Assembly (NCBI GenBank): GCA_030693205.1
Contig: JAUYBG010000011.1
Span: forward strand, 56,793 to 120,792
Reading direction: 5' to 3'
Source of the DNA: a bacterium
GTDB taxonomy: Bacteria; Patescibacteriota; Minisyncoccia; JAHIHE01
DNA length: 64,000 nt
Part shown: positions 141 through 60,853 of the stretch, in pieces
How positions within the stretch are numbered: the first letter of the stretch is position 1
Layout of the letters: each line of letters starts with the position of its first letter
Position numbers and translations under genes: made by a program
Notes under the pieces: model-generated
Told to the model about the DNA's origin: nothing
The model's input: the letters and a program-made list of their open reading frames with translations, nothing else
Database searches by the model: none

Positions 141-1190
141 TTATTTTGCCGCAAGCGCTATTTTCGCTTTTATCTGTTTCTGGATCTCCGGAGCTACTTT
201 CGGATTCTCTTCCAAATATTTCTTGCTCGCTTCCATTCCCTGTCCCATTTTTTGTCCGTCAAAGGAGAACCAAGTGCCGGCTTTCTGGACTACGCCATAT
301 TTAACTCCGGTAACGATCAAATCGGACAACCTGGAAATTCCCTGGTTGTAAATAATATCGAATTCCGCTATCTGAAAAGGAGGAGCGACTTTATTTTTCA
401 CGATTTTGGCGATCGTGTGATTTCCTATGACCCGATCCCCTTCCTTGATCTGCTCTTTTCTCCTGACATCAATTCTGACTGAAGCGTAGAATTTCAGCGC
501 ATTGCCTCCGGTCGTCGTTTCCGGATTGCCGAACATCACGCCTATTTTCATTCTCAATTGATTGATAAAAATAACCGTGGTATTGGTCCGAGAAATTGCT
601 CCGGTTAATTTTCTCAAAGCCTGGCTCATTAGCCGCGCCTGAAGACCCATATGGGAATCTCCCATCTCGCCTTCAATTTCCGCTTTCGGAGTCAAAGCCG
701 CCACCGAATCAACCACGATCACATCAATACTGTTCGAACGCACCAGCGCTTCAACTATTTCCAAAGCCTGCTCGCCATTATCAGGCTGAGAAATAAACAA
801 ATCATTTATTTTTACACCGATTTTTTTCGCGTATTCCGGATCAAGCGCATGCTCAGCGTCGATAAAAGCCGCCAAACCGCCGCGTTTTTGAGCCTCAGAC
901 ACAATATGGAGAGCTAAGGTAGTTTTACCGCTGGATTCTGGGCCAAAAATTTCAATCACCCTTCCTTTAGGCACTCCGCCTATCCCCAAAGCGATATCAA
1001 GAGAGATCGATCCGGTAGGGATCGCTTCCACGTTCATTTTCCGCGCTTCCCCCAATTTCATAATAGATCCTTCCCCGAATCTTTTCCTGATATCTTCCGC
1101 CGCTGTTTCAGCCAGCTTATTTTTGGGATTTGTCTCCACTTTTGCCTTTTTTACATCCTTCTCCTTTTCCTTTTCTTTAACTATGACCAT
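141..1190 (-). CDS. recA: recombinase RecA
   Basis: Translation carries the Walker [13 protein letters not shown] and the IDAEHALDP segment with full-length RecA architecture. A lysine/glutamate-rich N-terminal extension is present. Confidence 0.97.
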
Positions 1191-1200
1191 GGTATTTTAA

Positions 1201-1938
1201 TTATTTTATTAAAGCTTGAGTTTGTTTGTACTGATACAATAAATTGGTTTCGGCCGCTTTTTTATTTTCTGCTTTTAAAACCACTGTCCTCGTAATTTCG
1301 CTTATTTTTTTAAATCTATTGGTTGCCGAGATCTTAATTATATTAGAACCCGGGGTCAGACTGATCTCTTCCAAGATTTTTCCGTCTTTTAGTCCTATCG
1401 CCTCTCCATTAATATAAACAACGGAATCAGGATCGCCAACCGAGCCTTTGACCAATACAGGCGTAAAATCCACAACGAGCTCGTCGGTGGGAAAATCTAT
1501 CAAAAGCTCCGGTCCTTTGAAAATCGCGCTGACCTGATAGCCGAAAAAAACCACAAAAGAAACCAAAATAATGCTTACGGCTAAAGCGGTAATGGTGCGG
1601 GGAGTGATGATAAAAGTCGGGGCATAGTTTAAATTAATGGAAGAATGATTATTTTTATCAATATTCCGCCTAATGCACTCTTCTTTTTTATAAAGCCTGA
1701 GAAAGCCCTTTACATCAACGCCGTAAAAATCGGCTATTTTTTTTAAAAAATCTTTCACATAAATTTCCGCCGGCATCTTATCAAGCCTTCCATCTTCCAA
1801 ATAAACCAAATATTTCTTGGTAATCTTGGTTTTATCGGCAAGATTATCCAAGTCTATTTTTTGGGCAGTTCTAATTTCTATTAATTTTTCGGAAAGAGTA
1901 TCAGACCCTTTCACTTTTTTTGTTGTAAACCAAGACAC
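1201..1938 (-). CDS. RodZ-like cytoskeleton protein (N-terminal XRE-type HTH, single TM, C-terminal DUF4115-like domain)
   Basis: N-terminal HTH region (LSEKLIEIRTAQKIDLDNLADKTKITKKYLVYLE), a central hydrophobic helix and a beta-rich C-terminus. The stop lies 10 nt upstream of the recA start. Confidence 0.65.
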   Translation of the reverse strand: MSWFTTKKVKGSDTLSEKLIEIRTAQKIDLDNLADKTKITKKYLVYLEDGRLDKMPAEIYVKDFLKKIADFYGVDVKGFLRLYKKEECIRRNIDKNNHSSINLNYAPTFIITPRTITALAVSIILVSFVVFFGYQVSAIFKGPELLIDFPTDELVVDFTPVLVKGSVGDPDSVVYINGEAIGLKDGKILEEISLTPGSNIIKISATNRFKKISEITRTVVLKAENKKAAETNLLYQYKQTQALIK

Positions 1939-2076: not shown

Positions 2077-4386
2077 CTACCTTTTCTCCATATCCACTTC
2101 TCTATCGTTTCTGAATTCCGTATTCAAACCATCGCTCGCCGCGCTTTCCGCGACCAATATCGTCCGAGGCTTTGCGCCATCAGAAGGCCCTATGATCCCC
2201 TGCTCTTCCAGAAGATCAAGAAGCCTCGCCGCTCTGGCATATCCCACGCGAAAACGCCTTTGCAAAAGAGACGCTGAAGCTTTTTTTGACCTGATCACCA
2301 TTTCTTTGGCCTGCTCATAAAGCTCATCCTCTCCGGCATCATTATTGCTCAAAGAAAAATCAACACTTGAAGCCGGAGCCTTGGCAATGACGCTTTCATC
2401 GAGCATTTGCGCGCCTTCTTTGTAATTCTCTTTGAGCCATTTTACCACTTTTTTAACCTCGTTCTCGGAAACAAAACAGCCTTGCAGACGCTTAGGCTTG
2501 GCCGTACCTGTCGCCAAATAAAGCATATCCCCCCGGCCTAAAAGTTTTTCCGCGCCGCTATGATCCAAAATCGTCCTGGAATCGATCAAGCTCGCTACCC
2601 GAAAAGCGATGCGAGCCGTAATGTTGGCTTTAATCAAGCCAGTAATGACATTAACTGATGGTCTTTGGGTTGAAATAACTAAATGAATTCCCACGGCTCT
2701 CGACATTTGAGCCAAACGCACGACCGCCGCTTCCACTTCGCGGGGAAAAGTCGCCATCAGATCCGCCAATTCATCAATGATCACTACGATATAAGGCAAA
2801 GGTTCTTTATCCTCAGATTTGGAAGCGATCATTTTTTTATTATAGGAATCGATGTCGCGGCTGCCAACTTCAGCAAGCACAATATACCGCCTCTCCATTT
2901 CCGAGACCACCCATTTCAAAACCCCCACCGCTTTTTCATTCTCCACGATCACCGGCGTCAGGAGATGAGGAATACTATTATACAAAGTCAATTCCACTCT
3001 TTTCGGATCAATCATTATAAGCTTCAGGGCATCAGGAGAATTATTATAGATCAAACTCATTATCAAATTATTAACAAAGATTGTTTTTCCGCTTCCGGTA
3101 GAACCGGCGATCAATAAATGCGGCAAGCCGCCAAGATCAACCCAGTGCGGATTTCCGGAAACATCCAAACCCATCGCCACTTTAAGCGAGGCAAAATAAT
3201 CATTTTTATAAAAATTGGAAAACGTTTCCAAAAGATTCCTAAGCCGGACGATGGCGGCGGACACATTGGGAATTTCTATTCCCACCAGGGATTTACCCGG
3301 AATCGGAGCTTCGATCCTAATGGAACTCGCGGCCAGGCTTAACGCCAGATCGTTTTGCAAAGCGGTGATCTTACTAAGCTTCACTCCCACTGACGGCTTA
3401 AAAGTGTATTGGCTTACAGTCGGCCCGATAAACACTTTTCCCATTTCTACTTCAATGCCAAAGTTTGATAAAGTTTTTTCGATGATCGAAGCATTGCCGT
3501 CAATATCGCCGCTATCAGCGCTGGTAAAATCGCTTTCCAAAAGATCCAATGGGAATTTGCTCCACTGAACCATTATTCTAGCTTTTTTCTTAGCCATTTT
3601 TTCCGAATAGGCAAAACTTTCCGCGCCAATATTCTTTTCCTGCTCATTCGCTTCCCCATTTTCTTTATCTTCAAGCGATTTTATTTTAAAAGAAGGCGCC
3701 AAACCATTTTTTTTGGCGTTTTCTTTTTCAAGCGCGGAAATATTATCTCTATAATTTTCTTCCTCTACTTTCGTTCTCTTGTTTTTCTTAGTTTGAGAAA
3801 TGAAACTGTAATAGCTATAAAAAGCTTTAATATTATAAACGATCCTGCTTAAAAAAGATTCAAGGGAAATATTAAAAATAAAAAGCGTTAAAATAATAAT
3901 CGCCATTATTAATATGACGCTGGCTACCGCCGGACCGGTAAAAGAAGTTAAAATAATGGAAAAAATCAAACCAAGATAACCGCCGCCGCCATAATTTACG
4001 GCAACGGATCGGAAATCATGCGGGAAAAACAGCAGGTTTACCAAAGCTAAAAAACTCAAAAGCACTACGGTAAAAGCTATAAGCATAACCGGAGAATAAT
4101 TAAAACGCCGCATCTGGCTATTATTATCGGCGGTTTTGGCAATAAGAGAAAGTCCGCCAAGAAACAAAAATACGGGCGCCAGGATAAATAAATGCCCGAA
4201 AAGCAGCCTTATCAACGAATGAATTCTTGCGCTGAACGGATCGTTAACCCCTATCAATCCCATAATACTGATCACGCCCAAAGCAAAGAAAATAATCGCT
4301 AAAATGTTGTATTTAAGCCCTTTTGAAGCATAATTTCGCTTGGAATAATTCTGGCTATTGTTGTTTTTCCTTTTATTTCTCGCCAT
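2077..4386 (-). CDS. ftsK: DNA translocase FtsK/SpoIIIE
   Basis: Four or more N-terminal TM helices, Walker A GSTGSGKT, and a C-terminal gamma winged-helix region (LYEQAKEMVIRSKKASASLLQRRFRVGYARAARLLD). Confidence 0.95.
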   Translation of the reverse strand: MARNKRKNNNSQNYSKRNYASKGLKYNILAIIFFALGVISIMGLIGVNDPFSARIHSLIRLLFGHLFILAPVFLFLGGLSLIAKTADNNSQMRRFNYSPVMLIAFTVVLLSFLALVNLLFFPHDFRSVAVNYGGGGYLGLIFSIILTSFTGPAVASVILIMAIIILTLFIFNISLESFLSRIVYNIKAFYSYYSFISQTKKNKRTKVEEENYRDNISALEKENAKKNGLAPSFKIKSLEDKENGEANEQEKNIGAESFAYSEKMAKKKARIMVQWSKFPLDLLESDFTSADSGDIDGNASIIEKTLSNFGIEVEMGKVFIGPTVSQYTFKPSVGVKLSKITALQNDLALSLAASSIRIEAPIPGKSLVGIEIPNVSAAIVRLRNLLETFSNFYKNDYFASLKVAMGLDVSGNPHWVDLGGLPHLLIAGSTGSGKTIFVNNLIMSLIYNNSPDALKLIMIDPKRVELTLYNSIPHLLTPVIVENEKAVGVLKWVVSEMERRYIVLAEVGSRDIDSYNKKMIASKSEDKEPLPYIVVIIDELADLMATFPREVEAAVVRLAQMSRAVGIHLVISTQRPSVNVITGLIKANITARIAFRVASLIDSRTILDHSGAEKLLGRGDMLYLATGTAKPKRLQGCFVSENEVKKVVKWLKENYKEGAQMLDESVIAKAPASSVDFSLSNNDAGEDELYEQAKEMVIRSKKASASLLQRRFRVGYARAARLLDLLEEQGIIGPSDGAKPRTILVAESAASDGLNTEFRNDREVDMEKR

Positions 4387-4442
4387 AGATAGCTTTTTAA
4401 AAAACTATAAACTACCAATTATCGCCTGCTAATTGTCTTTCT

Positions 4443-4470
4443 ATTATACTACTTTTAAAGAAAAAATCAA
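4443..4470 (-). promoter_or_regulatory. sigma70-like promoter for ftsK (TTGATT-N16-TATAAT on minus strand)
   Basis: Reverse complement shows TTGATTttttctttaaaagtagTATAAT about 55 nt upstream of the ftsK ATG. Confidence 0.5.
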
Positions 4471-4481
4471 AGAAATTGGAT

Positions 4482-4510
4482 AAAAAAAGCGAATGAATAA
4501 ATCCACTCGC
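4482..4510 (-). terminator. rho-independent terminator after the radical-SAM gene, immediately followed by the ftsK promoter
   Basis: Minus-strand reading GCGAGTG-gatttatt-CATTCGC-TTTTTTT. Confidence 0.6.
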
Positions 4511-4525
4511 CTAAACGATTTTATT

Positions 4526-5593
4526 TTACAACAAAGCTTTTGGAGCAAGCAGATGAGTTACGCTCCAGACACATCCCTCGCGCTCGCAGCATTTTTTTAC
4601 TTCGGCATCGCTTTGATAGATAAAAGGCAATCTTTTGCGAATATTTGAATCCCTAAGATCAGATGTCACAAGCCTAGGAATATCCGAACCTTTTATATCG
4701 CTGCATGCTCTCAGTCGAAATGATGTTTTGCCATCTCGCAAAGATTTACCGACTTCCGAACTCACTCGCAAATATGGCAGGCCTAAACCGCCGCAATTTG
4801 CCGAATACGGTTTCGCCGAATCCTTGCAGCTTTCGATAACCATTTTCAAATAGTCTTCGGATGGAATAATTTGCTTTGGATATTCCCTTTTAAGTTTGCG
4901 AATTTCCATTATCGATCTTTCTATGGTCTTCCTGTCGTTTTTTACAGCAGCAAGTCCGACTACTGGAGAACGAAAAGTGAACTCCAAACCCGAATCATAT
5001 TTTTCCCGCTTATAAATAAGCGGGCACAAACTGAAAGATCCTCCCGTCTTTGCGACTTTAAGAGCAATTTCGGCAAGATTCGCGCCGTTTATTTTATTTA
5101 CCGCGCAATTCGCTCTTACCCAGCAATGTTCGCTAAATTCCTCAAGCGCTTTCCAGCCGGCAATGCTTTTTTTTACCATTCCCGTATCTATTCCGGCACT
5201 TAGCAATTCATCGCATTGTTCGAGCGTATAATTTATACTCACTGCCAAACCGCCTTTTTCTTGGGAAAGTTCCGGTTTGATCCTTTGCAGAGCATCGCGC
5301 GATATCGCATTAGTAAGAATGGCAAATCTTTTTATTTCTTTTTGCCGATTTAAATACTCAAGCGCCGCCGGAAGATCCCTATACAGCAAAGGTTCTCCGC
5401 CAATGAATTCCAAATTTTGGACGCCGGCGCATATCAGATCGTCTATGCAGCTAATAACAAATTCTATTTTAGGATGTTGGTAGCCTGCCGTGATTTTATT
5501 TCTAACCTGGCACCCTTCGCATTCCAAATTGCAATCGGTTATCAATTCCCATTGGCAAAATTTAAACTTGGCTTGAATATTATTTTTTTCCAT
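4526..5593 (-). CDS. radical SAM protein with C-terminal Cys-rich SPASM/twitch-like region
   Basis: N-terminal CNLECEGC (Cx3Cx2C) radical-SAM cluster motif. Additional Cys clusters near the C-terminus (CWVRANC, CGGLG, KKCCEREGC). GAGGTG ribosome-binding site 5 nt before the ATG; the stop is tightly coupled to the upstream upp-like gene. Confidence 0.8.
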   Translation of the reverse strand: MEKNNIQAKFKFCQWELITDCNLECEGCQVRNKITAGYQHPKIEFVISCIDDLICAGVQNLEFIGGEPLLYRDLPAALEYLNRQKEIKRFAILTNAISRDALQRIKPELSQEKGGLAVSINYTLEQCDELLSAGIDTGMVKKSIAGWKALEEFSEHCWVRANCAVNKINGANLAEIALKVAKTGGSFSLCPLIYKREKYDSGLEFTFRSPVVGLAAVKNDRKTIERSIMEIRKLKREYPKQIIPSEDYLKMVIESCKDSAKPYSANCGGLGLPYLRVSSEVGKSLRDGKTSFRLRACSDIKGSDIPRLVTSDLRDSNIRKRLPFIYQSDAEVKKCCEREGCVWSVTHLLAPKALL

Positions 5594-5612
5594 TAATTCA
5601 CCTCGTCATATA

Positions 5613-6269
5613 TCACAACAAATTTCCTTTACTGGTTATTCCCATCCATCTATCGCCGGCATCGCCTACGACCGGCTTGCCTGAATCAAGATAAATCACG
5701 TATCCCTTTTCATTTAAACCGATGTTTGTCCCGGTAAAACCGACAATATTTTTTACATCCGGATGGTTATCCCGAAGTGCCTTTAATCCATCCTTTGATG
5801 CAACTCCGAATATACAGGTTATATCTTTAAATCCGCGTTTTTTAAGCTCTTGGATCGTCATGATACTGCTTGTAGCAGTGGCACACATCGGATCCAGGAT
5901 TAAGACCGGCATACCGCGAGGAATTTCACGCGGCAAATTGCAGTTTAGCATTTCAGCCTGTATGGATATTTCATTCCGAAAAGTCCACACCATAAATACG
6001 GGCATCTCATACCTTAATAGCCTCTCTTTCATGGCTAGTAATCCGGCATTAGCAGCTCTCAAAATTATTACGAGCCCCACATTATCCTTATTACCGTTCA
6101 AACTCCTGAAATAGACTGATAATAATCTTTTGTATATAATTTCCCACTGCTGCCGAAATTTAGCAGTTGAAAGATTTAAGTCGGGATGCATTCTATCTAC
6201 CGCTATATTTATCTGTGCGTTCTGTACATATTCCACGTTCGGAAATTCTTCTCCGTTTATTTCTAACAA
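5613..6269 (-). CDS. uracil phosphoribosyltransferase (Upp)-family protein, divergent
   Basis: Aligns to Upp over ILRA(G)..GL.M, the PRPP loop LILDPMCATATS (Upp consensus DPMLATGGS) and the C-terminal HPDV...GY.I..GDAGDR..G. The GG-to-AT change in the PRPP loop and a short insertion make it non-canonical. The start appears to be TTG. Confidence 0.75.
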   Translation of the reverse strand: MLEINGEEFPNVEYVQNAQINIAVDRMHPDLNLSTAKFRQQWEIIYKRLLSVYFRSLNGNKDNVGLVIILRAANAGLLAMKERLLRYEMPVFMVWTFRNEISIQAEMLNCNLPREIPRGMPVLILDPMCATATSSIMTIQELKKRGFKDITCIFGVASKDGLKALRDNHPDVKNIVGFTGTNIGLNEKGYVIYLDSGKPVVGDAGDRWMGITSKGNLL

Positions 6270-6390
6270 ATTTCATCATCTCCTGTTTTTTTCAATTTTA
6301 AGAGAACAATCATATTGTCCCCCTTTATGCAAATTTGCACCTGTATAAATCTAACAGATAAGGAAAAATTGTCAAATATTCTAATTTACA

Positions 6391-6418
6391 TTGACAAATT
6401 CCACTATAAATGTAGAAT
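6391..6418 (+). promoter_or_regulatory. sigma70-like promoter for pyrI-like gene (TTGACA-N16-TAGAAT) in divergent region with upp-like operon
   Basis: Perfect -35 and good -10, ~28 nt upstream of the ATG. Flanked by the direct repeat TTGTCAAAT / TTGACAAAT. Confidence 0.55.
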
Positions 6419-6446
6419 ACGGCTAGTACATTTTTATGGAGGGCTC

Positions 6447-6929
6447 ATGCAAACAGAAGAAACAAAGGAAAAAAAGGAAGGAAGGAGAATAGCAAAAATT
6501 GAAAAAGGAACGGTCGTTGACCGCATTTCTCCGGGACACGCGCTAAAAGTCCTTGAAATTCTGGGCATTCTGTCCAACATCAGCGCAAAAGTAAGTTTCG
6601 TAATGAATATTCCAAGCTTAAAACTGGAAGGCGGAAAAAAAGACATAGTAAAGATCGAAAAACGGGAACTTACGGAAAATGAAACCGATAAAATTGCAAT
6701 AATTTCTCCCCATGCCACGATAAACATAATTAGGGATTATAAAGTGGTTGAAAAATATCAGGTTAGTTTACCGGATGAAATAATCGGCATCGTCAAATGC
6801 TCGCGGACTACCTGCATTACCAATAATCCCAAAGAAGCAGGGGGTCGTCGAAACAAAATTCGCCGTGATCGAACGAGATCCGGTCACACTGGAATGCCAC
6901 CATTGCGAGACGCAAATAAGCGGAGATGA
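6447..6929 (+). CDS. pyrI: aspartate carbamoyltransferase regulatory chain (PyrI)-like, interrupted by a frameshift at a G5 run (~6840-6844); the conserved Zn domain continues in the +1 frame to ~6954
   Basis: Translation from the ATG at ~6447 aligns to PyrI (IEKGTVVDRI.., IPSLKLEGGKKDIVKIE, LPDEIIGIVKCSRTTCITN). After KEAG the listed frame diverges, while the +1 frame reads VVETKFAVIERDPVTLECHHCETQISGDDIPKCIKC*, which is the PyrI zinc-domain C-terminus. GGAGG 4 nt upstream of the ATG; TTGACA-N16-TAGAAT promoter at ~6391-6418. Confidence 0.65.
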   Translation: MQTEETKEKKEGRRIAKIEKGTVVDRISPGHALKVLEILGILSNISAKVSFVMNIPSLKLEGGKKDIVKIEKRELTENETDKIAIISPHATINIIRDYKVVEKYQVSLPDEIIGIVKCSRTTCITNNPKEAGGRRNKIRRDRTRSGHTGMPPLRDANKRR

Positions 6930-6985
6930 TATACCAAAATGTATAAAATGTTAATTCTTGCTTTTAGCAAGAATTTTTTTATTAA

Positions 6986-7014
6986 AAATAAAAAAAGAAG
7001 GGGTTTAATCCTTC
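6986..7014 (-). terminator. rho-independent terminator after the Cys-rich small ORF (GAAGG-N8-CCTTC plus T7 on minus strand)
   Basis: Reverse complement gaaggattaaaccccttcttttttt. Confidence 0.65.
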
Positions 7015-7025
7015 AAAAATTTCTT

Positions 7026-7223
7026 TTAGTCGTTCCAAACTTTTGGATTCGGGCATTCCGGATTCGGGCATTGATTATTATTGACAAATTCTTCATAAAG
7101 AGCGATGTGTCCGCACTGCCAGCAATAATCCATTCCAGGCGGACAAATTTTACCATTCGGCACACCTCGAATTAAAACCTCTCTTGGTCTATTTAACCAC
7201 TCTAACGACTCTTCTTCCACCAT
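7026..7223 (-). CDS. small Cys-rich (putative zinc-ribbon) protein, 65 aa
   Basis: C-x6-C-x2-C...C-x4-C pattern (CPPGMDYCWQC ... CPNPEC). Strong AAGGAGGG ribosome-binding site 4 nt before the ATG, overlapping the stop of the upstream gene. Hairpin plus T-run terminator immediately downstream. Confidence 0.55.
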   Translation of the reverse strand: MVEEESLEWLNRPREVLIRGVPNGKICPPGMDYCWQCGHIALYEEFVNNNQCPNPECPNPKVWND

Positions 7224-7234
7224 TCATCCCTCCT

Positions 7235-7627
7235 TTACCTTCCGTATAATATCACTAGCCTTGTCAGCTCCTGGATAATTTCTTTTTCACCCAATTGTTC
7301 AATCGTTGGTATAAATTTTTCCGGCGACACGGTCGCAGAAGTTTTTACCAGACCATCGAGGCATGTCGCCAGATTGATTCTATTGCCATCTCCCTGTCGA
7401 AGAAAAGCACTATTGCCAGTCTGACTGCGGACTTTAACATTGCCATTGGACCAATCCCAGTGGCATTCCGCGTCTGGAAGTATTGTTATCCAAGAATATT
7501 CGCTTTCGCCGTCTTTCGCAAGAAAAACATTTTTCTTGTTTATCCTTGCCAACAATTCTCCTACCGAAGCGGTTTTACTTAATAAAATACCGCCGGGCAG
7601 CTGAATCACGTTTATTGCTTTTGCCAA
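7235..7627 (-). CDS. hypothetical protein, 130 aa
   Basis: ORF with an AGGAGG ribosome-binding site 8 nt upstream of a TTG start. Translationally coupled to the Cys-rich ORF. No recognisable family. Confidence 0.5.
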   Translation of the reverse strand: MAKAINVIQLPGGILLSKTASVGELLARINKKNVFLAKDGESEYSWITILPDAECHWDWSNGNVKVRSQTGNSAFLRQGDGNRINLATCLDGLVKTSATVSPEKFIPTIEQLGEKEIIQELTRLVILYGR

Positions 7628-7680
7628 ATTTTATTCCTCCTGTATATTTAACTATTTTAACAATCCTAACATAAGTGAGG

Positions 7681-7717
7681 GTTTTGTCAATAAAAAAGAA
7701 GGGTTTTAGTCCTTCAA
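7681..7717 (-). terminator. terminator (GAAGG-actaaaac-CCTTC plus T6) whose T-tract runs into an ATTGACAAAA -35 element for the next gene; same junction motif recurs at ~8158-8177
   Basis: cttttttattgacaaaa(c/t)cc is present twice on the minus strand, each upstream of a small gene. Confidence 0.6.
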
Positions 7718-7723
7718 TATTTT

Positions 7724-8128
7724 TTACAAATTTGGCTGGCGGTTGAATTCCATCTCGCCTGTTTCGGAAAGCTGGAAAATCTTATCCATCTGTAAATACA
7801 TGATCTGACTTATATTTATCCATTTGTCGAAAACAATCGTTTCCGGAGGCATGCCTGCGATCACTGTTTCACAATCAATAATGAACCTCCTGTCATTATT
7901 ACTCCAATTACGCGCACTAACGCTTTTGATTTGAAAAGATACGCCTTTTAGTCTTTTTGGCACAGGATTTTTACCGATTACAATTGGCTTTCCAGCTATC
8001 CATTCATATTTTTCTTTCGCGCCTTCTTTTTTACCATTAATCCGAATTATGATGTAGCCCATAATGACAACTGCTACAATCAAAACCGATTCTAAACCGC
8101 TATACATTTTATCAACTCCTTTGTTCAA
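7724..8128 (-). CDS. membrane-anchored hypothetical protein, 134 aa
   Basis: N-terminal TM helix (VLIVAVVIMGYIIIRI), AAGGAG ribosome-binding site, own promoter-like TTGACA and terminator hairpin. Confidence 0.5.
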   Translation of the reverse strand: MNKGVDKMYSGLESVLIVAVVIMGYIIIRINGKKEGAKEKYEWIAGKPIVIGKNPVPKRLKGVSFQIKSVSARNWSNNDRRFIIDCETVIAGMPPETIVFDKWINISQIMYLQMDKIFQLSETGEMEFNRQPNL

Positions 8129-8227
8129 ACTGTTTTAAAATCATATCACAATTACGGATTTTGTCAATAAAAAAGCGGCTAAGAAATTTTTCTCAAATCA
8201 CTAGTTTCACTTTTTTTTAATCATATT

Positions 8228-8731
8228 TTATTTCCCCGCTTTAAACCCTATCTTCCTCACCGACCCATCCTTCCCATCATCCAAAAGTTGCCTTAATGTA
8301 TCGAAAACTATTTTAAATTTCTTGTCATATTTTTTCTCCATTTGTTCGATTTTCAATCTCAACTCGCGATTACCGGCGATCATTTCCCGCAATTTGATAA
8401 AAGTCCGAATAATTTGAATATTTACTTGCACAGCTCTCTTGCTATTTAATATACCGGAAAGCATAGCCACACCAGGTTCGGTAAAGACCAACGGCGTTCT
8501 TCTTAGCCCCATTTTTTCGCGATTGGAAGTGCCAAATTGGTACTTCCAATTTTCCATTTCCTGCTTATTCATTTGAAACATAAAATCTTCGGGAAAGCGA
8601 TCAATATTGCGCCTCACTGCGCAATTAAGCATTTTGGTTTCCACTCCATACAGCTCTGCCAAGTCTCTATCAAACATTACTTTCTTGCCTCGCATTAAAA
8701 ATATTTTATGTTCTATTCTTTCGTCTGGCAC
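8228..8731 (-). CDS. ORF6N-domain (KilA-N-related) DNA-binding protein, phage/mobile-element associated
   Basis: IFLMRGKKVMFDRDLAELYGVETKMLNCAVRRNIDRFPEDFMFQM matches the ORF6N signature (RGQ.VMLD.DLA.LYGVETK.LNQAVKRN..RFPEDFMFQL) plus a C-terminal coiled-coil region. Confidence 0.75.
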   Translation of the reverse strand: MPDERIEHKIFLMRGKKVMFDRDLAELYGVETKMLNCAVRRNIDRFPEDFMFQMNKQEMENWKYQFGTSNREKMGLRRTPLVFTEPGVAMLSGILNSKRAVQVNIQIIRTFIKLREMIAGNRELRLKIEQMEKKYDKKFKIVFDTLRQLLDDGKDGSVRKIGFKAGK

Positions 8732-8819
8732 AATAATCGCTAGATTTTTTGATTACATAAATTTATTTATTCTTAACTTCGATTTATTATACAACAATGT
8801 GTGTCATAAATAAAGCCGA

Positions 8820-8885
8820 ATTTTTGAGGTCATAATTTGCAACCTCAAAAAAACTACCCCGATCTCTCAGGGTAGTTTTTACTTT
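8820..8885. terminator. two adjacent bidirectional hairpin terminators downstream of rpoC (GAGGT..ACCTC and CTACCCC..GGGTAG, each flanked by A- and T-runs)
   Basis: Seen directly in the sequence. Ends the rpoBC transcription unit and separates it from the ORF6N gene. Confidence 0.7.
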
Positions 8886-8893
8886 CTTTAATT

Positions 8894-11800
8894 TTATTTT
8901 CCAAATCCGGTTCCGGCAGGGATCAACTTGCCAATAATAACATTTTCTTTCAAGCCTTTCAATTCATCCGATTTGCCGAATAAAGCGGCGGAGATCAGCA
9001 CGCGAGCGGTTTCCTGGAACGAAGCGGCGGCCAGGAAGCTTTCGGTCGAAAGCGAAACTTTCGTAATACCAAGCAATAATTCTTCGCCTTTGGCCGGCTT
9101 CTTGCCTTCCTTTTTGGCAATGGAATTCACTTTATTGAACTGCGCCTCTTCCACCACGCTGCCTTCCGGCAATTGCGTGTCTCCGGCGTCATTAATTATA
9201 ATTCTCGAGAACATCTGCTTCACGATCAACTCGATGTGCTTATCGTTGATGCCTTCGCCTTGAGCGGTGTAAATTTCCTGCACTTCGCCGATAATATATT
9301 CCACTACCGCCATTTTATCAACCAGATTGAAAAGCTCATGAATATCAATATGCCCTTCGGTCAATCTTTGTCCTTTCTTGATCGCCGCGCCCTTCTCGAC
9401 GGAAATCGCGATGTCGGAATCCACTTCATATTCTTTCACTTCAGCTTCCGTTTTTCCTTTTTTATCCACGACATTGATGCGAATGATCTTTTTATTGGTC
9501 AGAGGAACAACATCAACGACTTTTCCAGATACTTCAGAGATCAAGGCTTTTCCTTTCGGAACACGGGCTTCAAAAATTTCTTCCACGCGAGGCAAACCCT
9601 GGGTAATGTCCCGTCCTGCAACTCCTCCGCTATGGAAGGTTTTCATGGTCAGCTGAGTTCCCGGCTCGCCGATAGCTTGCGCGGTGACGATGCCGATAGC
9701 TTCGCCTTTGGCGATCGGCTTATTCCTGCCCAAATCATAGCCGTAGCATTTTTGGCAAATTCCCCGTTCGGCCTTGCAATAAATAACCGTGCGAACTTTA
9801 ATAAAATCGATCCCGGAAATATTTTCGATCGTCTTGGCGATATCTTTGGGAATAAATTCTCCTACCGGCACCAGCACTTTTTTCGTTTTTGGATCAATAA
9901 TATCTTCCGTGACAACCCGTCCGTAAATTCTCGCCGCAAATCCCCGGCTTAATCCATATTGATCAAGCCTGGGAATAATAATGCTTTTCTTGCTTCCGCA
10001 ATCAATTTCATTGATAACCATATCTTGCGCCACATCCACCAAGCGCCTGGTCAGGTATCCCGCAGTGGCGGTTCTTAGAGCGATATCAGTCATACCTTTT
10101 CTGGCTCCGTGAGTGGAAATGAAATATTCCAGCACATCAAAACCTTCCTTGAAACTATTTTTGATCGGCAGTTCGATCGTTTCTCCGGCCGGATTCACCA
10201 CCAACCCTTTCATACCCATCATCTGCGCGACTACTGCCCAAGAACTTCTGGCCCCCGATTCGATCATCAAAAAGACCGGGCTGTTTTGATCCAAAGTGTT
10301 TAGAACGGCTTTGGTAACTTTATTCTTGGTATCGGTCCAGGTTTCGATTACCTTGGTCCTCCGCTCTTCACTGGTAAGAAGCCCCTCATTATACTGGCGC
10401 TCGATAATTTCCGCCTGTTTTTTCGCTTCTTCGATCAAAGCGGCTTTTTCTTTCGGTATTTTCAGATCGCTCATTCCCCAGCTAAGCCCGGAAATGGTCA
10501 CGTACTCAAAACCCAGTTTTTTGATCCTGTCGACCAGATCCACCGTTTCTTCAGCGCCGGCTTTTTCCAGCGAATCAGCCACCAAAGCTTTGAGATTCTT
10601 GGCATCCATAACTTCGTTCACGAACCGCAAGGATTTTGGCAAAGCTTCGTTGAAAATAATACGCCCGGCTGAAGTTTTTAAATATAATCCTTCGTTAGGC
10701 TCTTCTTTTTTAATAACATTAATATCGAAATCTTTTCGCAATTTTATTTCCGCCTTAAGGTCAATGATGCCCAATTGATAATTCAAAATCGCTTCTTTGG
10801 CATCGTAGAAAACCTTGCCCTCGCCCTTTCCGCCGGAAATAATTTTGGTCATATAATAGCAGCCCAAAATAATATCCTGATAAGGAATGACGATCGGATC
10901 TCCGGTTGCCGGCTTCAGCAAATTCTTGCTGGAAAGCATGATCTCTCGGCCTTCGCGCTGCGCTTCTTCGCCCAACGGCAAATGGACTGCCATCTGGTCT
11001 CCGTCGAAATCAGCATTGAAAGCCTTGCAAACCAAAGGATGAATTTGAATGGCCTTGCCTTCGATCAGCACCGGATAAAACGCCTGGATGCTCAAACGGT
11101 GAAGGGTCGGAGCGCGATTTAAAAGCACTACTTTGCCGTTGATAATATTTTCCAAAATATCCCAAACCTCCACAGTCTCCTGCTCGATCAAACGGGTGGC
11201 GCTTCGGACGTTGTAGGCATAATTTCCTTCAATTAATTTTCGCATCACGAAAGGCTTGAATAATTCCAAAGCCATATTTTTCGGCAATCCGCATTGATTC
11301 AATTTCAATTCCGGTCCGACCACGATCACGGAGCGTCCGGAATAATCCACGCGCTTGCCGAGCAAATTCTGCCTGAATCGGCCTTGCTTTCCTTTTAACA
11401 TATCGGCCAGGGACCGAAGCTGCCTTTTTTGTCCGGTAGAAGCGATAGTCACTTGTCCGCGCTTAATGCTATTGTCGATCAAGGCGTCAAGCGCTTCCTG
11501 CAACATTCTTTTTTCATTCCGGCAGATGACTTCCGGAGCTTTCAATTCGATCAAATGCTTCAAGCGATTATTGCGGTTGATAACTCTTCGATAGAGGTCA
11601 TTCAAGTCGGAAGTGGCAAAACGCCCGCCATCCAGCTGCACCATTGGCCTCAAGTCCGGCGGGATCACTGGCAAAACCGTGAAACACATCCATTCCGGCT
11701 TTACTCCGGCTTTTATCATTCCTTGCGCCAGCCTTAAGCGCTTGGTAATTTTTTTTCTTACGACATCGTTGCTGACATTTTTCAGTTCTTCGGTCAAAGC

Positions 11801-15762: not shown

Positions 15763-16063
15763 AAAAATTGCTCAGTTTCATTTTCACGTAAATTTAAAAA
15801 GTAAATTTCAGACTCTTTAAAATTTGTGAATTATCCCCTCTTTCGAAACAAAAATAATCCGTTGCTTTTTTCTGAAAATAAAAAAACAGCGAAGAGATGA
15901 GTTTCAAAATATGCCAGTGAAGGCTGGGGTGAAACTTATTTAATAAAAAGTATTATAAAAAAAACTGCTATTTTCCCGCCAAAAATTAAAATAGACCAAA
16001 AAAACACTCTCGGTCTTTTGGTAACCTTAATTAATTTATTTGCTTTGTTTTGCTCATAGCGTA

Positions 16064-16339
16064 TTAATGTTTCTTCTCAAGCCAATTCACGACGCTAACT
16101 ACCGAATTTCCTATTAAATTACTGACGAAACTCTCTGATTCGGAGATGAAATAGCTCCGAATTCTTTCTTGTTTTTTAAGTCTAACATATGCCAAATTTT
16201 TGTCAAGACCGTTTATGATCTTGTCGGACAAGTCTTTTTGATAGGTGTCTTTGACCGTATTCAAAATTTCCTTGCCTCTTTGAGCCGAAACTTCCAAAGT
16301 TTTCATATCCTTGTCGAGCTTTACTAAGAGTTTTAACAT
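16064..16339 (-). CDS. small protein (91 aa), possible ribbon-helix-helix-like; N-terminal 33 aa duplicated at 18813-18950
   Basis: ORF 4 nt downstream of the secreted-protein gene. The DNA at 16232-16339 is ~85% identical to 18846-18950. Confidence 0.5.
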   Translation of the reverse strand: MLKLLVKLDKDMKTLEVSAQRGKEILNTVKDTYQKDLSDKIINGLDKNLAYVRLKKQERIRSYFISESESFVSNLIGNSVVSVVNWLEKKH

Positions 16340-16343
16340 AAAT

Positions 16344-17441
16344 TTATTTTATAAATTTGAAAGTCGAAAGAATTTGGTTAACAGTTTCTTCCTTCTGTTT
16401 CAAATAATCAATTCGAAAAATAATGTCACTTTTTTTAAAAAATTGAGTTACTCTATCTATTGGTGACACTGTTGTATCTTCAAGAACATAAGTCTGCGTA
16501 AAATATTCCAACATATCAACCCCTTTAAATTGTTTTTTTACTAAATTCGGCGTAGTGTTATGGCTATAATAACCTTGAATATCACCTTGTGAAACAATAA
16601 ATTGTTCTAACGTCTTTTCCTCGTCTAATACAATACTGTAGGCGGATAATAAACCATAAACACCCAGATCATCAGGTTTTGTCCAATTTAAGTGTAGCTC
16701 ATTGGCAGTTTCAGACTCTATTACAAAAATCAGATTTGTTGGATATTTTACTTCAAATCCATATTTCTCGTTTTTGTAAGTTTTTAAGTTTACTATTTCG
16801 TCTTTTTGAATAAATCTAAAGGTAGAAAGAATTTGTTTTATTACCCCATCACTTTTTTCATCATAAGAAGTAGAAATTGTATAAGCTGCTCCATTTTTCA
16901 AAAAATAATACAAATCTCCGACTGGCGCTTGTCCCTTTCCAGGCAACCAACTAAACCCTACAGCTTCTTTTCCATCAATAGAAGTTTTAAGAGTAAGCTT
17001 CTCTGTAACTCCTCTTTTTGCTAAAAATGTTTTTATATCTTTATCAACTATTTCATTTTCTATATTTATATCTATGGATAACCAATAATCTCGATCGCCA
17101 GAATAACTAAGATTGAATTTTGCCAAAACTAAGTCGCTTCCATCGTTTTCATTTTTCAAAGTCCATCCAGATGGATATTGAAATCCAAAACTATATTTAT
17201 CGCTTCTGTAATTTTGCCACCCCTCAATATTTTCACTAATATCTGGCGTAATTGCAGGTGTCGGGGTTGTTAAAATTTCTGGCGTAATCGACGCTACCGG
17301 TTCGCTATCTACAGCCGATTTATTATTCGCCAAATACCCCGCTACCCCAAGCACTATGCCGAAAGAAACTAAAAAAATCACGAGTAAAATCAATTTCGTC
17401 GCCGCTAAATTCAATAATCTGGGTTTTTGCTCCGGTATCAT
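16344..17441 (-). CDS. signal-anchored secreted protein with two internally repeated ~150-aa domains
   Basis: N-terminus MIPEQKPRLLNLAATKLILLVIFLVSF is paralogous to the N-terminus of 18963-19706. The domain ends ILSTFRFIQK and ILSTFKFIK are repeated. Confidence 0.6.
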   Translation of the reverse strand: MIPEQKPRLLNLAATKLILLVIFLVSFGIVLGVAGYLANNKSAVDSEPVASITPEILTTPTPAITPDISENIEGWQNYRSDKYSFGFQYPSGWTLKNENDGSDLVLAKFNLSYSGDRDYWLSIDINIENEIVDKDIKTFLAKRGVTEKLTLKTSIDGKEAVGFSWLPGKGQAPVGDLYYFLKNGAAYTISTSYDEKSDGVIKQILSTFRFIQKDEIVNLKTYKNEKYGFEVKYPTNLIFVIESETANELHLNWTKPDDLGVYGLLSAYSIVLDEEKTLEQFIVSQGDIQGYYSHNTTPNLVKKQFKGVDMLEYFTQTYVLEDTTVSPIDRVTQFFKKSDIIFRIDYLKQKEETVNQILSTFKFIK

Positions 17442-17470
17442 AAAATTTATTTAATAATTATAATTAAAAC

Positions 17471-18727
17471 TTATTTAAAATCCACAAATGGCAAAAGAAC
17501 AGCGGGAATAAAATATACCTCATTTTCTTTTTTTAATAAATCTTTTGTGGTAATCAATTTTCTCCCCACATTATCGTACCGCTCAGTAAAATTCTCCATT
17601 ATTACAGGCACTTTGACTTTATTCCTATATTTTACCTCGCAAAGCATTAATTTATTATTTTTATCCTCAATCACAAAATCAATTTCCGCGCCGCCGGAAG
17701 TGCGATAAAAATGAATGTATTCTTTATTATATTGAACAAGCAAAGTATTATAGACAAAATTTTCAATCACCTCGCCTTGCCCATCTAATCTCGTTTCAAA
17801 AGATCGCAAAAGATAATTGCGAATACCGGCATCTAAAACATAAACTTTTGGCATTTTAGAAATCTCCGAACGAATATTTTTAAAATACGGCGTTACTAAA
17901 TCTATAATATATGTGCCGGCCAAAATCTCCAGATACTTTTTTAATGTATTTATCGACAGATTTGCCGTATTCGAAAGCTCCTGGCTATTTACCAATTGGC
18001 CGATTTGTCCGGCTAAAATTTTTATCAGATTATTAAAACCAGTTACATTTTCAACATTCAGTTGATTGATAATATCCTTATCGATATAGGTTTTAATTAT
18101 TGATTTCAAAACTGTCTCTTTTTCTTCCACGCCTTGAGTAGTCAAAACCTCGGGATAGCCGCCGTAAGATAAATATTCACCAATACTCAGTTCCAGTTTA
18201 GGCTTAAAAGTTTCAAAAAACATTTCGAGCTCTTTTAAGTCAGCCAAACCATGTCGCTTAGTGTTTGTGCCTTCGCGAAAATCAAAATATTCTTTGAAAT
18301 TAATCCGATCAACATTGAAATGAATCGCCCTTCCTGTTAAATATTCCGAATTTTTATTTATTTCCAAAGCGCTTGATCCGCTGACAATCAGTTGAATTTT
18401 ATTTTTATGCTTATCAAAAATATTCTTGAGCAATAATCCAGCTTCTTCTATCGCTTGAAATTCATCAATCATCAAATAAATAAACTCATCGGGAAAATTA
18501 AAATATTGCTCCAGATACAACTCCAAACTAGCCGAAGTTTTCAGTATTGGATTATTGTCAATTTCATCCGCCAATAAATAAGCAACCCTCTTGCCGGATT
18601 TTTCCAAATCTTTTTTGATCTCTTTGAGTAAATAAGTTTTACCGACCTGTCGAGCGCCTTTTATAATTAAAATTTTCTCTTTGCCCAGCCAAGGTTTTAT
18701 TTTTTGCAATATTTCTCTTTGTATCAT
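17471..18727 (-). CDS. AAA+ ATPase (AAA_14 N-terminus plus DUF4143 C-terminus family)
   Basis: Walker A GARQVGKTYLL, Walker B LMIDEFQ, and the typical ~400-aa architecture of this widespread accessory ATPase. Confidence 0.85.
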   Translation of the reverse strand: MIQREILQKIKPWLGKEKILIIKGARQVGKTYLLKEIKKDLEKSGKRVAYLLADEIDNNPILKTSASLELYLEQYFNFPDEFIYLMIDEFQAIEEAGLLLKNIFDKHKNKIQLIVSGSSALEINKNSEYLTGRAIHFNVDRINFKEYFDFREGTNTKRHGLADLKELEMFFETFKPKLELSIGEYLSYGGYPEVLTTQGVEEKETVLKSIIKTYIDKDIINQLNVENVTGFNNLIKILAGQIGQLVNSQELSNTANLSINTLKKYLEILAGTYIIDLVTPYFKNIRSEISKMPKVYVLDAGIRNYLLRSFETRLDGQGEVIENFVYNTLLVQYNKEYIHFYRTSGGAEIDFVIEDKNNKLMLCEVKYRNKVKVPVIMENFTERYDNVGRKLITTKDLLKKENEVYFIPAVLLPFVDFK

Positions 18728-18812
18728 ATGTTTTCATTTATTATCATTTATGCCAGAATTGTATCACATACTTGATAATAAAACAATAGAAAACTATCAA
18801 ACTGCTAACAAA

Positions 18813-18950
18813 AAAGCTTGACTTTTATTACTTCAGTCGTGTCTTTTTGATAAGTATCCTTAGTCGTATTTAATGTCTCCCTACCTCTCTGAGCCGAAAC
18901 TTTCAAAGTTTTCATATCTTCGTCGAGTTTTACGAAAAGTTTTAGCATAA
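18813..18950 (-). pseudogene. truncated paralog (45 codons) of the 91-aa gene at 16064-16339
   Basis: MLKLFVKLDEDMKTLKVSAQRG.. matches MLKLLVKLDKDMKTLEVSAQRG.., then diverges and stops. Sits in the same position relative to a paralogous secreted-protein gene. Confidence 0.4.
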
Positions 18951-18962
18951 AATTATTTTAAA

Positions 18963-19706
18963 TTAATCTTTAAGACAGCGAAGGGAAAAACCATTTGCCT
19001 TGCTAATTAAAGTACGGCTAATATTCCCTCCAGCATCCCCTAAAAATATGTATCGACTCCATGCATTAGATCTATCGTCGATGTATTCATCGGCAGAAGT
19101 CCAATAATTATTGGACATGTTTCGACCATAGAAAAACCCAGCGGATGAACGTTCACCGCAGCCAATACCTTCAAATCCACTAGAACCGCTTAGTCCAAGC
19201 TTTATCCCAGCAGTAGCACAACCACCTGGACCGTTTCTGTCTTTTAAGCAAGTTTCGCCATTATCCTTTAATCCATTTTCTAACACATACCATTCCGAAT
19301 CTTTCGGCACGTGCCAGCCATTCGGACAAATGCCTTGAGCACCGTCTGTGACGGATTTATTCATTGCCGTATTCCAATCATACAATCCGCCGTCCGTTTC
19401 GCAAATTTTAGGATCATTATTATAGCAATAACGAGTAATTGATTTTCCTGCCGGATTTTTCGTAACTTTTAGATTTTCTTTCAACCAGCATTGCTCGCCA
19501 ATCTGCACCGTATTATAAATATTATTATCTATATCGGAAACGGTAGAAGTGCCACAGAAAAAAGAAGCTAAATTTTGTAATAATGGTTTTCTCACCAAAT
19601 ACTCTGCCACACCAATCACGACAATAAACGAAATTAAAATAACCGCGGCTAAAATTAATCTTGACGTGGCTAAATTAGCTGGCTTAGGTTTTTGTTCCGG
19701 AGACAT
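18963..19706 (-). CDS. FISUMP-domain (Fibrobacter succinogenes major paralogous domain) secreted protein
   Basis: YNTVQIGEQCWLKENL....GGLYDW..AM.....ICPNGWHVPKDSEW is the TIGR02145-type signature. N-terminal signal anchor paralogous to 16344-17441. Confidence 0.75.
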   Translation of the reverse strand: MSPEQKPKPANLATSRLILAAVILISFIVVIGVAEYLVRKPLLQNLASFFCGTSTVSDIDNNIYNTVQIGEQCWLKENLKVTKNPAGKSITRYCYNNDPKICETDGGLYDWNTAMNKSVTDGAQGICPNGWHVPKDSEWYVLENGLKDNGETCLKDRNGPGGCATAGIKLGLSGSSGFEGIGCGERSSAGFFYGRNMSNNYWTSADEYIDDRSNAWSRYIFLGDAGGNISRTLISKANGFSLRCLKD

Positions 19707-19717
19707 AAAATTAAAAT

Positions 19718-19963
19718 TTAATAATTATTATAAGTTTTATCCGATCTTTTTTCGATGGCCAAAATAAAACAACGGCCATTATCTTGTTTTTTGAAAATAA
19801 CTCTTAATTTTCCTTTTCTAACGCGAAAAATATTATCGCAGTTTTTCAATTTCTTTAAATCAAGCCCTGATAAAGAATCACTCTTTATTTTTAAAAGAAT
19901 AGTCTTTATCAAACCTCTATCTTTAACCGATAATTTTTCGAGCGCCTTGACAATTTTATCCAT
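19718..19963 (-). CDS. RelE/ParE-family type II toxin (putative)
   Basis: 81 aa; C-terminal IFRVRKGKLRVIFKK..GRCFILAIEKRSDKTY is the RelE/ParE-like strand pattern. 4-nt gap to the upstream small ORF. Confidence 0.6.
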   Translation of the reverse strand: MDKIVKALEKLSVKDRGLIKTILLKIKSDSLSGLDLKKLKNCDNIFRVRKGKLRVIFKKQDNGRCFILAIEKRSDKTYNNY

Positions 19964-19967
19964 AAAA

Positions 19968-49420: not shown

Positions 49421-49434
49421 AAGATTATGCGTTA

Positions 49435-50583: not shown

Positions 50584-50588
50584 AAATA

Positions 50589-60787: not shown

Positions 60788-60853
60788 TGTAGTTTTATAA
60801 ATTTTAAATTTTAAAACGGTTCTAAATATTAGGAATGTCTTTTATAACTATAC

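Follow-up and report, generated by a model that had tools for sequence, protein, structure and literature searches.

We analysed a 64-kb stretch of a Patescibacteria genome (contig JAUYBG010000011.1 of assembly GCA_030693205.1, positions 56,793 to 120,792 of the forward strand; hereafter the window), in which a gene for a homologue of the uracil phosphoribosyltransferase Upp (5613-6269, minus strand, 218 amino acids) is followed by a gene for a radical S-adenosylmethionine (SAM) enzyme (4526-5593, minus strand, 355 amino acids). Judged by sequence comparison, the two genes are a conserved, co-translated cassette of about 1.7 kb found in a few Patescibacteria lineages. We favour, with moderate confidence, the reading that the pair would be a two-enzyme nucleotide module centred on uridine 5'-monophosphate (UMP), consisting of a remodelled phosphoribosyltransferase and a radical-SAM enzyme that would act on a uracil-type nucleotide.

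The genomes of Patescibacteria, or candidate phyla radiation (CPR) bacteria, are tiny, and these organisms are thought to rely on nucleotides that they scavenge. A dedicated iron-sulfur (Fe-S) radical enzyme that is tied, in such small scavenging genomes, to a phosphoribosyltransferase and to pyrF, pyrE, pyrC or pyrI would point to unknown nucleotide chemistry. For radical-SAM enzymology, the pair provides a defined new family with a strong hint at its substrate, a uracil-type nucleotide. Because it consists of two genes of about 1.7 kb, and because a fused form and a form with an incomplete radical-SAM motif occur in nature, the system is testable by heterologous expression. The analysis also flagged a candidate pyrimidine-linked regulatory leader, described here for the first time, and a clade of PyrI proteins whose genes, in five CPR loci, never lie beside pyrB.

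Two adjacent genes conserved across Patescibacteria loci

An initial annotation of the window had proposed that the two minus-strand genes form one operon, which is supported by their spacing, by a single terminator and by their recurrence in related loci. The Upp homologue begins, as proposed, at a TTG, which is the first possible start of the gene. The predicted 19-nt gap between the genes (5594-5612) was found and holds the ribosome-binding site GAGGTG, and one intrinsic-terminator-like hairpin with a T-run (4512-4487, minus strand; 11-bp stem, TTTTTTT tail) ends the operon, none being present between the two genes.

We searched 5.8 billion proteins with a word-indexed method and found 27 relatives of the Upp-like protein at 47-79% identity, followed by a drop to canonical Upp at 37%; the radical-SAM protein had 28 relatives at 44-85% identity, followed by a drop to 30%. 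The family is rare, since only seven radical-SAM clusters reached E<=1e-30 when 1.84 billion cluster representatives were searched exhaustively with HMMER. All homologues of the pair came from Patescibacteria (some named Minisyncoccia) or from metagenomes, and the GTDB representative genomes yielded one further true locus only, along with distant radical-SAM proteins in Nealsonbacteria and other phyla. In every readable contig the two genes were neighbours and kept their order; the gaps between them measured -11 to 25 nt and all carried a GGTGA-type ribosome-binding site. Because the pair recurs with an Upp-like partner in at least nine distinct loci (individual loci are labelled L003, L004 and so on below), the arrangement is not due to chance. 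The claim that the pairing is undescribed also stood: we found no curated family for it in NCBIfam, PADLOC, Rfam or Pfam beyond the superfamily level and no paper, and full-text literature searches returned no description of an association between a phosphoribosyltransferase, a radical-SAM protein and PyrI. A viral origin was considered and rejected, as profiles of both families found no relatives among 2.9 million viral contigs.

The Upp-like protein belongs to the Pfam family UPRTase (PF14681, E=4e-22, 79.1 bits against a cut-off of 27). It fell below the cut-offs of both Upp equivalogs, scoring 74.1 bits for TIGR01091 (cut-off 208.35) and 79.7 bits for NF001097 (cut-off 114), and the curated profile search gave no match to PyrR. 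Its AlphaFold model had a mean predicted local distance difference test (pLDDT) score of 80, and the top 27 Foldseek matches in the PDB were all uracil phosphoribosyltransferases of the Upp and not the PyrR kind, at template modelling (TM) scores of 0.70-0.75 and 22-26% identity. These results agree with the earlier description of a divergent member of the Upp family.

The protein shares with Upp its fold, the ILRA-type Arg71, Arg98, the loop Asp126-x-x-x-Ala-Thr-x-x-Ser that binds phosphoribosyl pyrophosphate (PRPP) and the GDAGDR motif, although it is only 22-37% identical to canonical Upps and its gene, unlike theirs, always has a radical-SAM gene behind it. Invariant in the Upp-like family are R71, R98, D126, A130-T131, S134, Y190, D203 and G205, with PRPP- and Mg-binding positions among them. 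The PRPP loop reads DPMCATATS, the conserved GG being replaced by (A/G)T in the family. The initial annotation had noted this replacement correctly, but the change is milder than it implied, because the Upp of Thermotoga maritima, a solved uracil phosphoribosyltransferase, itself reads ATGVS at this place. The C-terminal insertion that had been reported is also present, as 6-8 residues before GDAGDR. It lies in the uracil-binding hood, which reads GYVIYLDSGKPVVGDAGD in the Upp-like protein against GYIIPGLGDAGD; a 6-residue insertion is kept across the Upp-like family, and the canonical hood GYI(I/V)PGLGDAGD is not matched. Further departures from Upp are a re-made N-terminal stretch of 60 residues and a 10-residue C-terminal extension. 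These features are consistent with a type-I phosphoribosyltransferase derived from Upp, in which catalysis is plausible since the PRPP-binding residues are kept.

The partner protein is a member of the radical-SAM superfamily (PF04055, E=1e-8, 35.9 bits, cut-off 29.5). The Cx3Cx2C motif that had been read from the sequence is indeed present, as CNLECEGC at residues 21-28, and its cysteines C21, C25 and C28 are invariant in 23 homologues; a GGE motif is present as well. The C-terminal part holds cysteines 256, 267, 297, 335, 336 and 341. C190 and C256 are conserved at the level of the family, whereas the wider family described below keeps C21, C28 (and C25 in its type A), C267, C297, C335 and C341, as well as four basic residues (K142, R208, K235 and R276) and D299, all in the numbering of the window protein. 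The conserved lysines and arginines would fit an anionic, probably phosphorylated, substrate.

The initial annotation had labelled this protein a SPASM enzyme. We looked for the seven-cysteine motif CX9-15GX4C...CX2CX5CX3C...C, which stands for two auxiliary clusters, or for a SPASM domain model, and the label did not hold: Pfam SPASM gave no match at E<=0.1, and CX2CX5CX3C is absent from the protein. The extra C-terminal cysteine clusters that had been claimed were recovered in part, as the C-terminus is rich in cysteine but carries one twitch-like set (C267, C297, C335 and C341) rather than several. These four conserved cysteines, together with full-length superposition on the structures of SkfB and BlsE, would fit a single auxiliary [4Fe-4S] cluster of twitch-like type.

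The AlphaFold model of the radical-SAM protein had a pLDDT of 89.6, and its nearest Foldseek neighbours in the PDB were viperin, SkfB, MoaA, BlsE, anSME and DesII, at TM scores of about 0.55. Like BtrN, SkfB, BlsE, anSME and MoaA, the protein has a radical-SAM core with a cysteine-rich C-terminal domain, and it superposes on them over its full length (TM 0.50-0.57). The spacing of its cysteines, C267-x29-C297-x37-C335-x5-C341, differs from these twitch, SPASM and MoaA subfamilies, and it scored above the cut-off for none of the curated models. For MoaA, TIGR02666 gave 28.9 bits (cut-off 284), and the C-terminal CX2CX13C is absent from the protein; for viperin, NF038283 gave 30.4 bits (cut-off 180), and the PADLOC model pVip gave 36 bits over the N-terminal half only. 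With viperins and pVips, its nearest structural neighbours, the protein shares a CX3CX2C partial triosephosphate isomerase (TIM) barrel, a partner enzyme that supplies a nucleotide and, probably, a phosphorylated nucleotide substrate. However, identity is 14-16%, viperins have no counterpart of the cysteine-rich auxiliary-cluster domain, and the partner here is a phosphoribosyltransferase and not a kinase, in a metabolic genomic context.

The two partners diverge discordantly, and the radical-SAM family has a wider branch. In L014, the radical-SAM protein is 71% identical to that of the window and the Upp-like protein only 30%. In L003 and L004, the Upp-like proteins are 71% and 60% identical to that of the window, respectively, but their partners are only about 26% identical to the radical-SAM family. 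The L003 partner is nonetheless related to this family (hhalign probability 98.6%), and tblastn found no radical-SAM gene with the complete motif (type A) in L004. In such partners, which we call type B, the middle cysteine of CX3CX2C is missing, leaving C-x8-C with the aromatic residue kept; a cysteine in a GGCS motif specific to type B might replace the missing cluster ligand. Type-B members were recorded at L003 2246-3451 and L004 2475-3656, as the proteins P0185, P0187, P0188 and P0223, and in loci L026-L028.

In P0188 (533 amino acids) a PyrR-like uracil phosphoribosyltransferase domain (NF003549, 99.9 bits) is fused to a type-B radical-SAM-like domain, and in L027 a separate PyrR-like gene lies directly upstream of a type-B gene. 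These PyrR-like partners score below the PyrR cut-off (72-100 bits against 138), and the PRPP loop of P0188 is TLTT, not TGRT. The partner in the window belongs to the Upp family, whereas PyrR-like partners belong to type-B members, where their fusion or adjacency runs parallel to that of the Upp-like partner. A uracil-type phosphoribosyltransferase and the Fe-S family are thus linked in three independent ways, by Upp-like adjacency, by PyrR-like adjacency and by fusion.

Leader and pyrimidine neighbours of the pair

The initial annotation had described a shared control region of about 175 bp with a plus-strand promoter, TTGACA-N16-TAGAAT. We found a divergent region of 177 bp with two back-to-back sigma-70-like promoters. 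That plus-strand promoter (6391-6418, 11 of 12 matches) serves the divergent gene pyrI, and a minus-strand promoter for the Upp-like/radical-SAM operon (6375-6348) reads TTGACA-N16-TAGATT with a TG element, its -35 and -10 boxes being kept in the alignment.

Between the latter promoter and the Upp-like gene lies a 5' leader (6264-6347, minus strand) that was recognised by alignment and by a covariance model. Conservation in the 85 nt before the Upp-like start exceeds that of the proteins, with about 80% identity between the window and L014, whose Upp-like proteins are only 30% identical, and the TTG together with AGGAGATGATGAAAT upstream of the start is conserved in five loci. The leader (z = -2.5) contains the palindrome TGCAAATTTGCA at 6327-6340 (minus strand), of the form TGCA-N-TGCA and placed at about +1. 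A predicted hairpin of 10-11 bp follows (6300-6324, minus strand), which would sequester an AGGAGG-like sequence, and then an A-rich linker and the predicted Shine-Dalgarno sequence AGGAG (6280-6284).

We built a covariance model, R1, from five leader sequences. R1 matched the leader before all TTG-type Upp-like genes and, outside its training set, a sequence before a pyrE-like gene in L024 (1009-1087, minus strand; 54 bits, E=6e-8); a weak match was seen in L016 (5532-5613, plus strand). Since a relative carries this leader before a pyrE-like gene, the pair would behave as a member of a pyrimidine regulon, and the leader may be a pyrimidine-linked operator or attenuator. A known RNA element was rejected, as Rfam at E<=1 over 4300-8900 matched neither the leader nor the region. 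L024 holds no pair of its own; its 351-aa and 220-aa genes were considered as a disguised pair and rejected (hhalign probabilities of 0.2% and 5.6%), the 220-aa protein being PyrE-like.

We then counted the genes within 6 kb of the pair in the nine distinct loci with an Upp-like partner. Eight of the nine have pyrF, a pyrE-like gene, pyrC or pyrI in this range. The most frequent is pyrF (six loci), in the type-2 form (TIGR02127, 291 bits, cut-off 110.6) or, elsewhere, in type-1-like forms. A pyrE-like gene of 300-311 amino acids with an N-terminal extension occurs in three. The gene pyrI, for the regulatory chain of aspartate transcarbamoylase (ATCase), also occurs in three, as the divergent next-door gene in the window and L025 and at a distance of 5 kb in L003, where a pyrC fragment or homologue (TIGR00857, E=4e-40) comes after it, the only pyrC among the nine; PyrC beside PyrI in this locus makes a dispersed de novo pathway likely. 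L014/L015 hold two PfkB nucleoside-kinase-like genes and a UMPH-1-type HAD nucleotidase (pyrimidine 5'-nucleotidase). The pyrimidine theme of the initial annotation is supported by this recurrence of PyrF, PyrE-like, PyrC and PyrI proteins, nucleoside kinases and a pyrimidine 5'-nucleotidase. Where a type-B locus has no phosphoribosyltransferase, the adjacent gene encodes a cytosine-deaminase-like amidohydrolase or a YfbR-like 5'-deoxynucleotidase. All of these neighbours converge on uracil or UMP.

The pyrE-like genes (L014 8060-9153, L017 4496-5574 and L019 4042-4944) encode an N-terminal extension of about 90 amino acids and score below the PyrE cut-offs; weak GfcR-like matches raise the possibility that the extension has a regulatory or DNA-binding role. 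A conserved 51-aa open reading frame (ORF) lies behind the pyrE-like gene in L014/L015 and in L017. In the type-B locus L026, an argininosuccinate synthase (634-2280) is fused to a C-terminal segment like the allosteric end of the large subunit of carbamoyl-phosphate synthase, and the type-B gene is preceded closely by a fragment (3415-3534) that weakly resembles the C-terminus of PyrB.

Possible functions of the pair

In the UMP-centred module that we favour, the Upp-like enzyme would use PRPP and a uracil-like base to make a uracil-type nucleoside 5'-monophosphate, or would bind such a nucleotide; it keeps the PRPP-binding residues but has a remodelled form of the loop that in Upp closes over uracil. 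The radical-SAM enzyme would then carry out a radical step, probably of redox or dehydration type, on that phosphorylated pyrimidine or its base, and this step would feed or draw on the UMP pool. Candidate chemistries are a dehydrogenation that replaces PyrD, a dehydration or deoxygenation, or another modification. The operon would be controlled by its own promoter and by the conserved leader with its operator-like palindrome and hairpin. Of the nucleotide-responsive pyrimidine module that the initial annotation had suggested, a two-gene core with facultative pyr neighbours is what we retain, and the three-part form with PyrI is not.

Several observations weigh against this module. The best NCBIfam match of the radical-SAM protein is 31 bits against cut-offs above 180, so no characterised homologue is near enough for its function to be transferred, and the structural resemblance at a TM of about 0.55 is generic similarity of the radical-SAM core. 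In L003 and L004, type-B partners sit beside close Upp-like homologues (60-71%); as type B lacks the middle cysteine, radical chemistry may not be essential to the role of the pair, unless the GGCS cysteine takes over as ligand. No phosphoribosyltransferase is adjacent in the type-B loci L026 and L028, and L016, alone among the nine loci, has no pyr gene nearby. Covariation in the leader is weak, with one-sided changes only among five sequences.

In an alternative that we regard as rather unlikely, the pair would bypass the middle of de novo UMP synthesis. The radical-SAM enzyme would be a flavin-independent substitute for dihydroorotate dehydrogenase, the Upp-like enzyme would phosphoribosylate orotate or dihydroorotate, and the resulting orotidine 5'-monophosphate (OMP) would pass to PyrF. 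PyrF is the commonest neighbour, PyrC and PyrI are close together in L003, PyrI adjoins the pair in the window and L025, and the pair loci showed neither PyrD nor PyrB. Radical-SAM dehydrogenases typically have an auxiliary cluster, BlsE, anSME and DesII are among the structural neighbours, and the enlarged base pocket could take a 6-carboxylate. However, pyrE-like genes coexist with the pair in three loci, where the Upp-like enzyme would be redundant; type-B relatives have salvage-type partners, PyrR-like and cytosine-deaminase-like; and one SAM per turnover is costly for a housekeeping step. A broader proposal, to which we likewise give only a small chance, would place a hitherto unrecognised radical-SAM step in the pyrimidine nucleotide metabolism of ultra-small bacteria. 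It would either take dihydroorotate or dihydrouracil, without flavin, through a phosphoribosylated intermediate to OMP or UMP in place of PyrD and PyrE, or convert UMP to deoxyuridine 5'-monophosphate independently of ribonucleotide reductase. A new lineage-specific cis-regulatory leader would control the pair, and the orphan PyrI clade would regulate a target other than PyrB.

The structural matches to viperins, which head the list, and the weak pVip match of 36 bits raise the possibility of an anti-phage or conflict module, in which the radical-SAM enzyme would turn the nucleotide supplied by the phosphoribosyltransferase into a chain-terminating or toxic analogue, much as viperin works with its partner kinases. 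A patchy, cassette-like distribution would agree with this, since the Upp-like and radical-SAM identities to the window are 30 and 71% in L014 and 71 and 26% in L003, and the syntenic FtsK-PyrI junction of L023 lacks the pair; a candidate defence gene, PDC-S05 (8228-8731), lies 2 kb off. We nevertheless judge it unlikely, as the viperin model gives 30 bits where 180 are required, an auxiliary cluster is foreign to viperins, the neighbours in eight of the nine loci are metabolic pyr genes rather than genes of defence, a pyrE-like gene has the same leader, and the 2.9 million viral contigs hold no relatives. A known defence system was rejected, PADLOC giving only the weak pVip match for the radical-SAM protein and nothing for the Upp-like protein or PyrI. 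Quite unlikely in our view is a regulatory complex, in which the phosphoribosyltransferase-like protein would sense PRPP or UMP, the Fe-S protein would be a redox or iron-sulfur sensor or a scaffold, and PyrI would possibly add sensing of cytidine or adenosine triphosphate. PyrR is a nucleotide-sensing regulator, both a pyr attenuator and a uracil phosphoribosyltransferase, and a PyrR-like partner is fused or adjacent to type-B members, which lack the complete CX3CX2C; both kinds of partner have other residues in place of glycines of the PRPP loop (the Upp-like protein reads ATATS and P0188 TLTT), and an orphan PyrI stands beside the pair in two loci. Yet type A retains every radical-SAM catalytic motif and the Upp-like protein its catalytic residues, no nucleic-acid-binding domain was detected, and PyrI is missing from most loci. 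Finally, ordinary housekeeping genes could have come to lie together by chance, the one for a genuine Upp that salvages uracil and the other for an unrelated radical-SAM enzyme that modifies tRNA, rRNA or a cofactor, beside a relic pyrI. CPR bacteria lean heavily on salvage, and the Upp-like protein has the Pfam match and the fold of a uracil phosphoribosyltransferase. We hold this to be very unlikely: the protein reaches 74-80 bits where the Upp equivalogs require 208 and 114, the radical-SAM protein passes the cut-off of no known family, and the pairing is strict in at least nine loci at distances of translational coupling, with a phosphoribosyltransferase-radical-SAM fusion in existence. 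The conserved linkage largely refutes it.

The divergent pyrI gene and the rest of the window

The pyrI gene (6447-6954, plus strand) had been read as a PyrI-like gene with allosteric and Zn domains. The allosteric domain is present (PF01948, E=1e-27), but the gene is not a single intact ORF. The frame from ATG 6447 ends at 6929 with a nonsense tail and, as encoded, gives 160 amino acids without the second pair of Zn cysteines; the Zn-domain C-terminus (VVETKFAVIERDPVTLECHHCETQ...KCIKC*) lies in another frame, with its stop at 6952-6954. Removal of one G from the G5 run at 6840-6844, which corrects a +1 frameshift, yields a PyrI of 168 amino acids with 76% identity to a relative of equal length whose gene is intact; intact relatives have 165-168 amino acids. 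A terminator-like hairpin with a T-run (6953-6975, plus strand) lies just 3' of the corrected stop, and its position supports 6954 as the original end of pyrI. An independent Logan assembly of SRR13727537 was 100% identical over 13.7 kb and had the same G5 run; as the run is in both assemblies, the frameshift is real or a systematic read error, and the copy in the window is either inactivated or mis-sequenced. The suggestion of a decaying remnant therefore fits this pyrI copy only and not the pair, which is intact in all relatives.

Frame correction raised the score for TIGR00240 (cut-off 148.55) from 131.2 to 153.9 bits. In the corrected protein, C118, C123, C150 and C153 align with the invariant CX4C...CX2C, the second pair lying beyond the frameshift, and identity to the PyrI proteins of Thermoplasmata and Bathyarchaeia is 50-55%. 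The label PyrI-like was thus too weak; on these comparisons the corrected protein appears to be a borderline true ATCase regulatory chain of archaeal type.

CPR orthologues are intact, 62-76% identical, and carry both Pfam domains, in contrast to the frameshifted copy in the window. They score 129-157 bits for TIGR00240, against 211 for one PyrB-linked archaeal PyrI, and differ from known PyrI in a Lys/Glu-rich N-terminal extension. That the window lacks pyrB was confirmed by Pfam scans of all ORFs of at least 120 amino acids and by tblastn. With E. coli and archaeal PyrB as queries, which recovered PyrB in archaeal control loci, no member of the PyrB/ornithine transcarbamoylase family was found in the 64 kb or in any of 30 CPR loci. 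None of the five CPR pyrI loci has pyrB adjacent, whereas the nearest relative outside CPR, an archaeal PyrI at 54% identity, is divergently adjacent to pyrB. Its archaeal relatives and its positions in CPR loci suggest that CPR PyrI is a horizontally acquired, lineage-conserved pyr gene.

PyrI had also been proposed as part of the system. This is not supported, because it is absent from six of the nine pair loci and occurs without the pair in L022/L023, at the same ftsK...rpoC position, and in L024, where pyrI is divergent from an operon of pyrF and a pyrE-like gene; in L025 it lies beside the pair. The expected synteny of all three genes therefore holds only for the adjacency of the pair, and PyrI, found with it in three loci, looks to be a syntenic neighbour by lineage and not a required subunit. 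In L022, a lone long-form hisG (919-1809, minus strand), whose product uses PRPP, lies beside pyrI, with no other his genes on the 15-kb contig.

Elsewhere, the window contains recA, ftsK, rpoB/rpoC, polA, ruvAB and many glycosyltransferase genes. An ORF6N-domain protein (8228-8731, minus strand) scores 187 bits for PDC-S05, a candidate defence family in PADLOC, and its gene shares the variable pyrI-rpoC interval with three strain-specific ORFs of 65, 130 and 134 amino acids. The latter were rejected as conserved partners, as they have a homologue in no other locus. A second radical-SAM gene (279 amino acids, weak DUF5131-like match) lies in the region 48581-51230 (minus strand), within a stretch of low G+C content (0.31) at 48-52 kb, and adjoins genes for a GMT-wHTH protein (PADLOC PDC-M30A match) and an S24 (LexA-like) peptidase; this region looks like a small mobile or defence island. 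Another low-G+C stretch (16000-20000, 0.33), which may be foreign DNA, encodes an AAA_14/DUF4143 ATPase, a PsbP-like lipoprotein and a Fib_succ_major-domain protein. At 59303-62116 (minus strand), a GT20 trehalose-6-phosphate-synthase-like gene stands beside a trehalase-family gene within a run of GT4 glycosyltransferases, which suggests trehalose turnover in a CPR genome.

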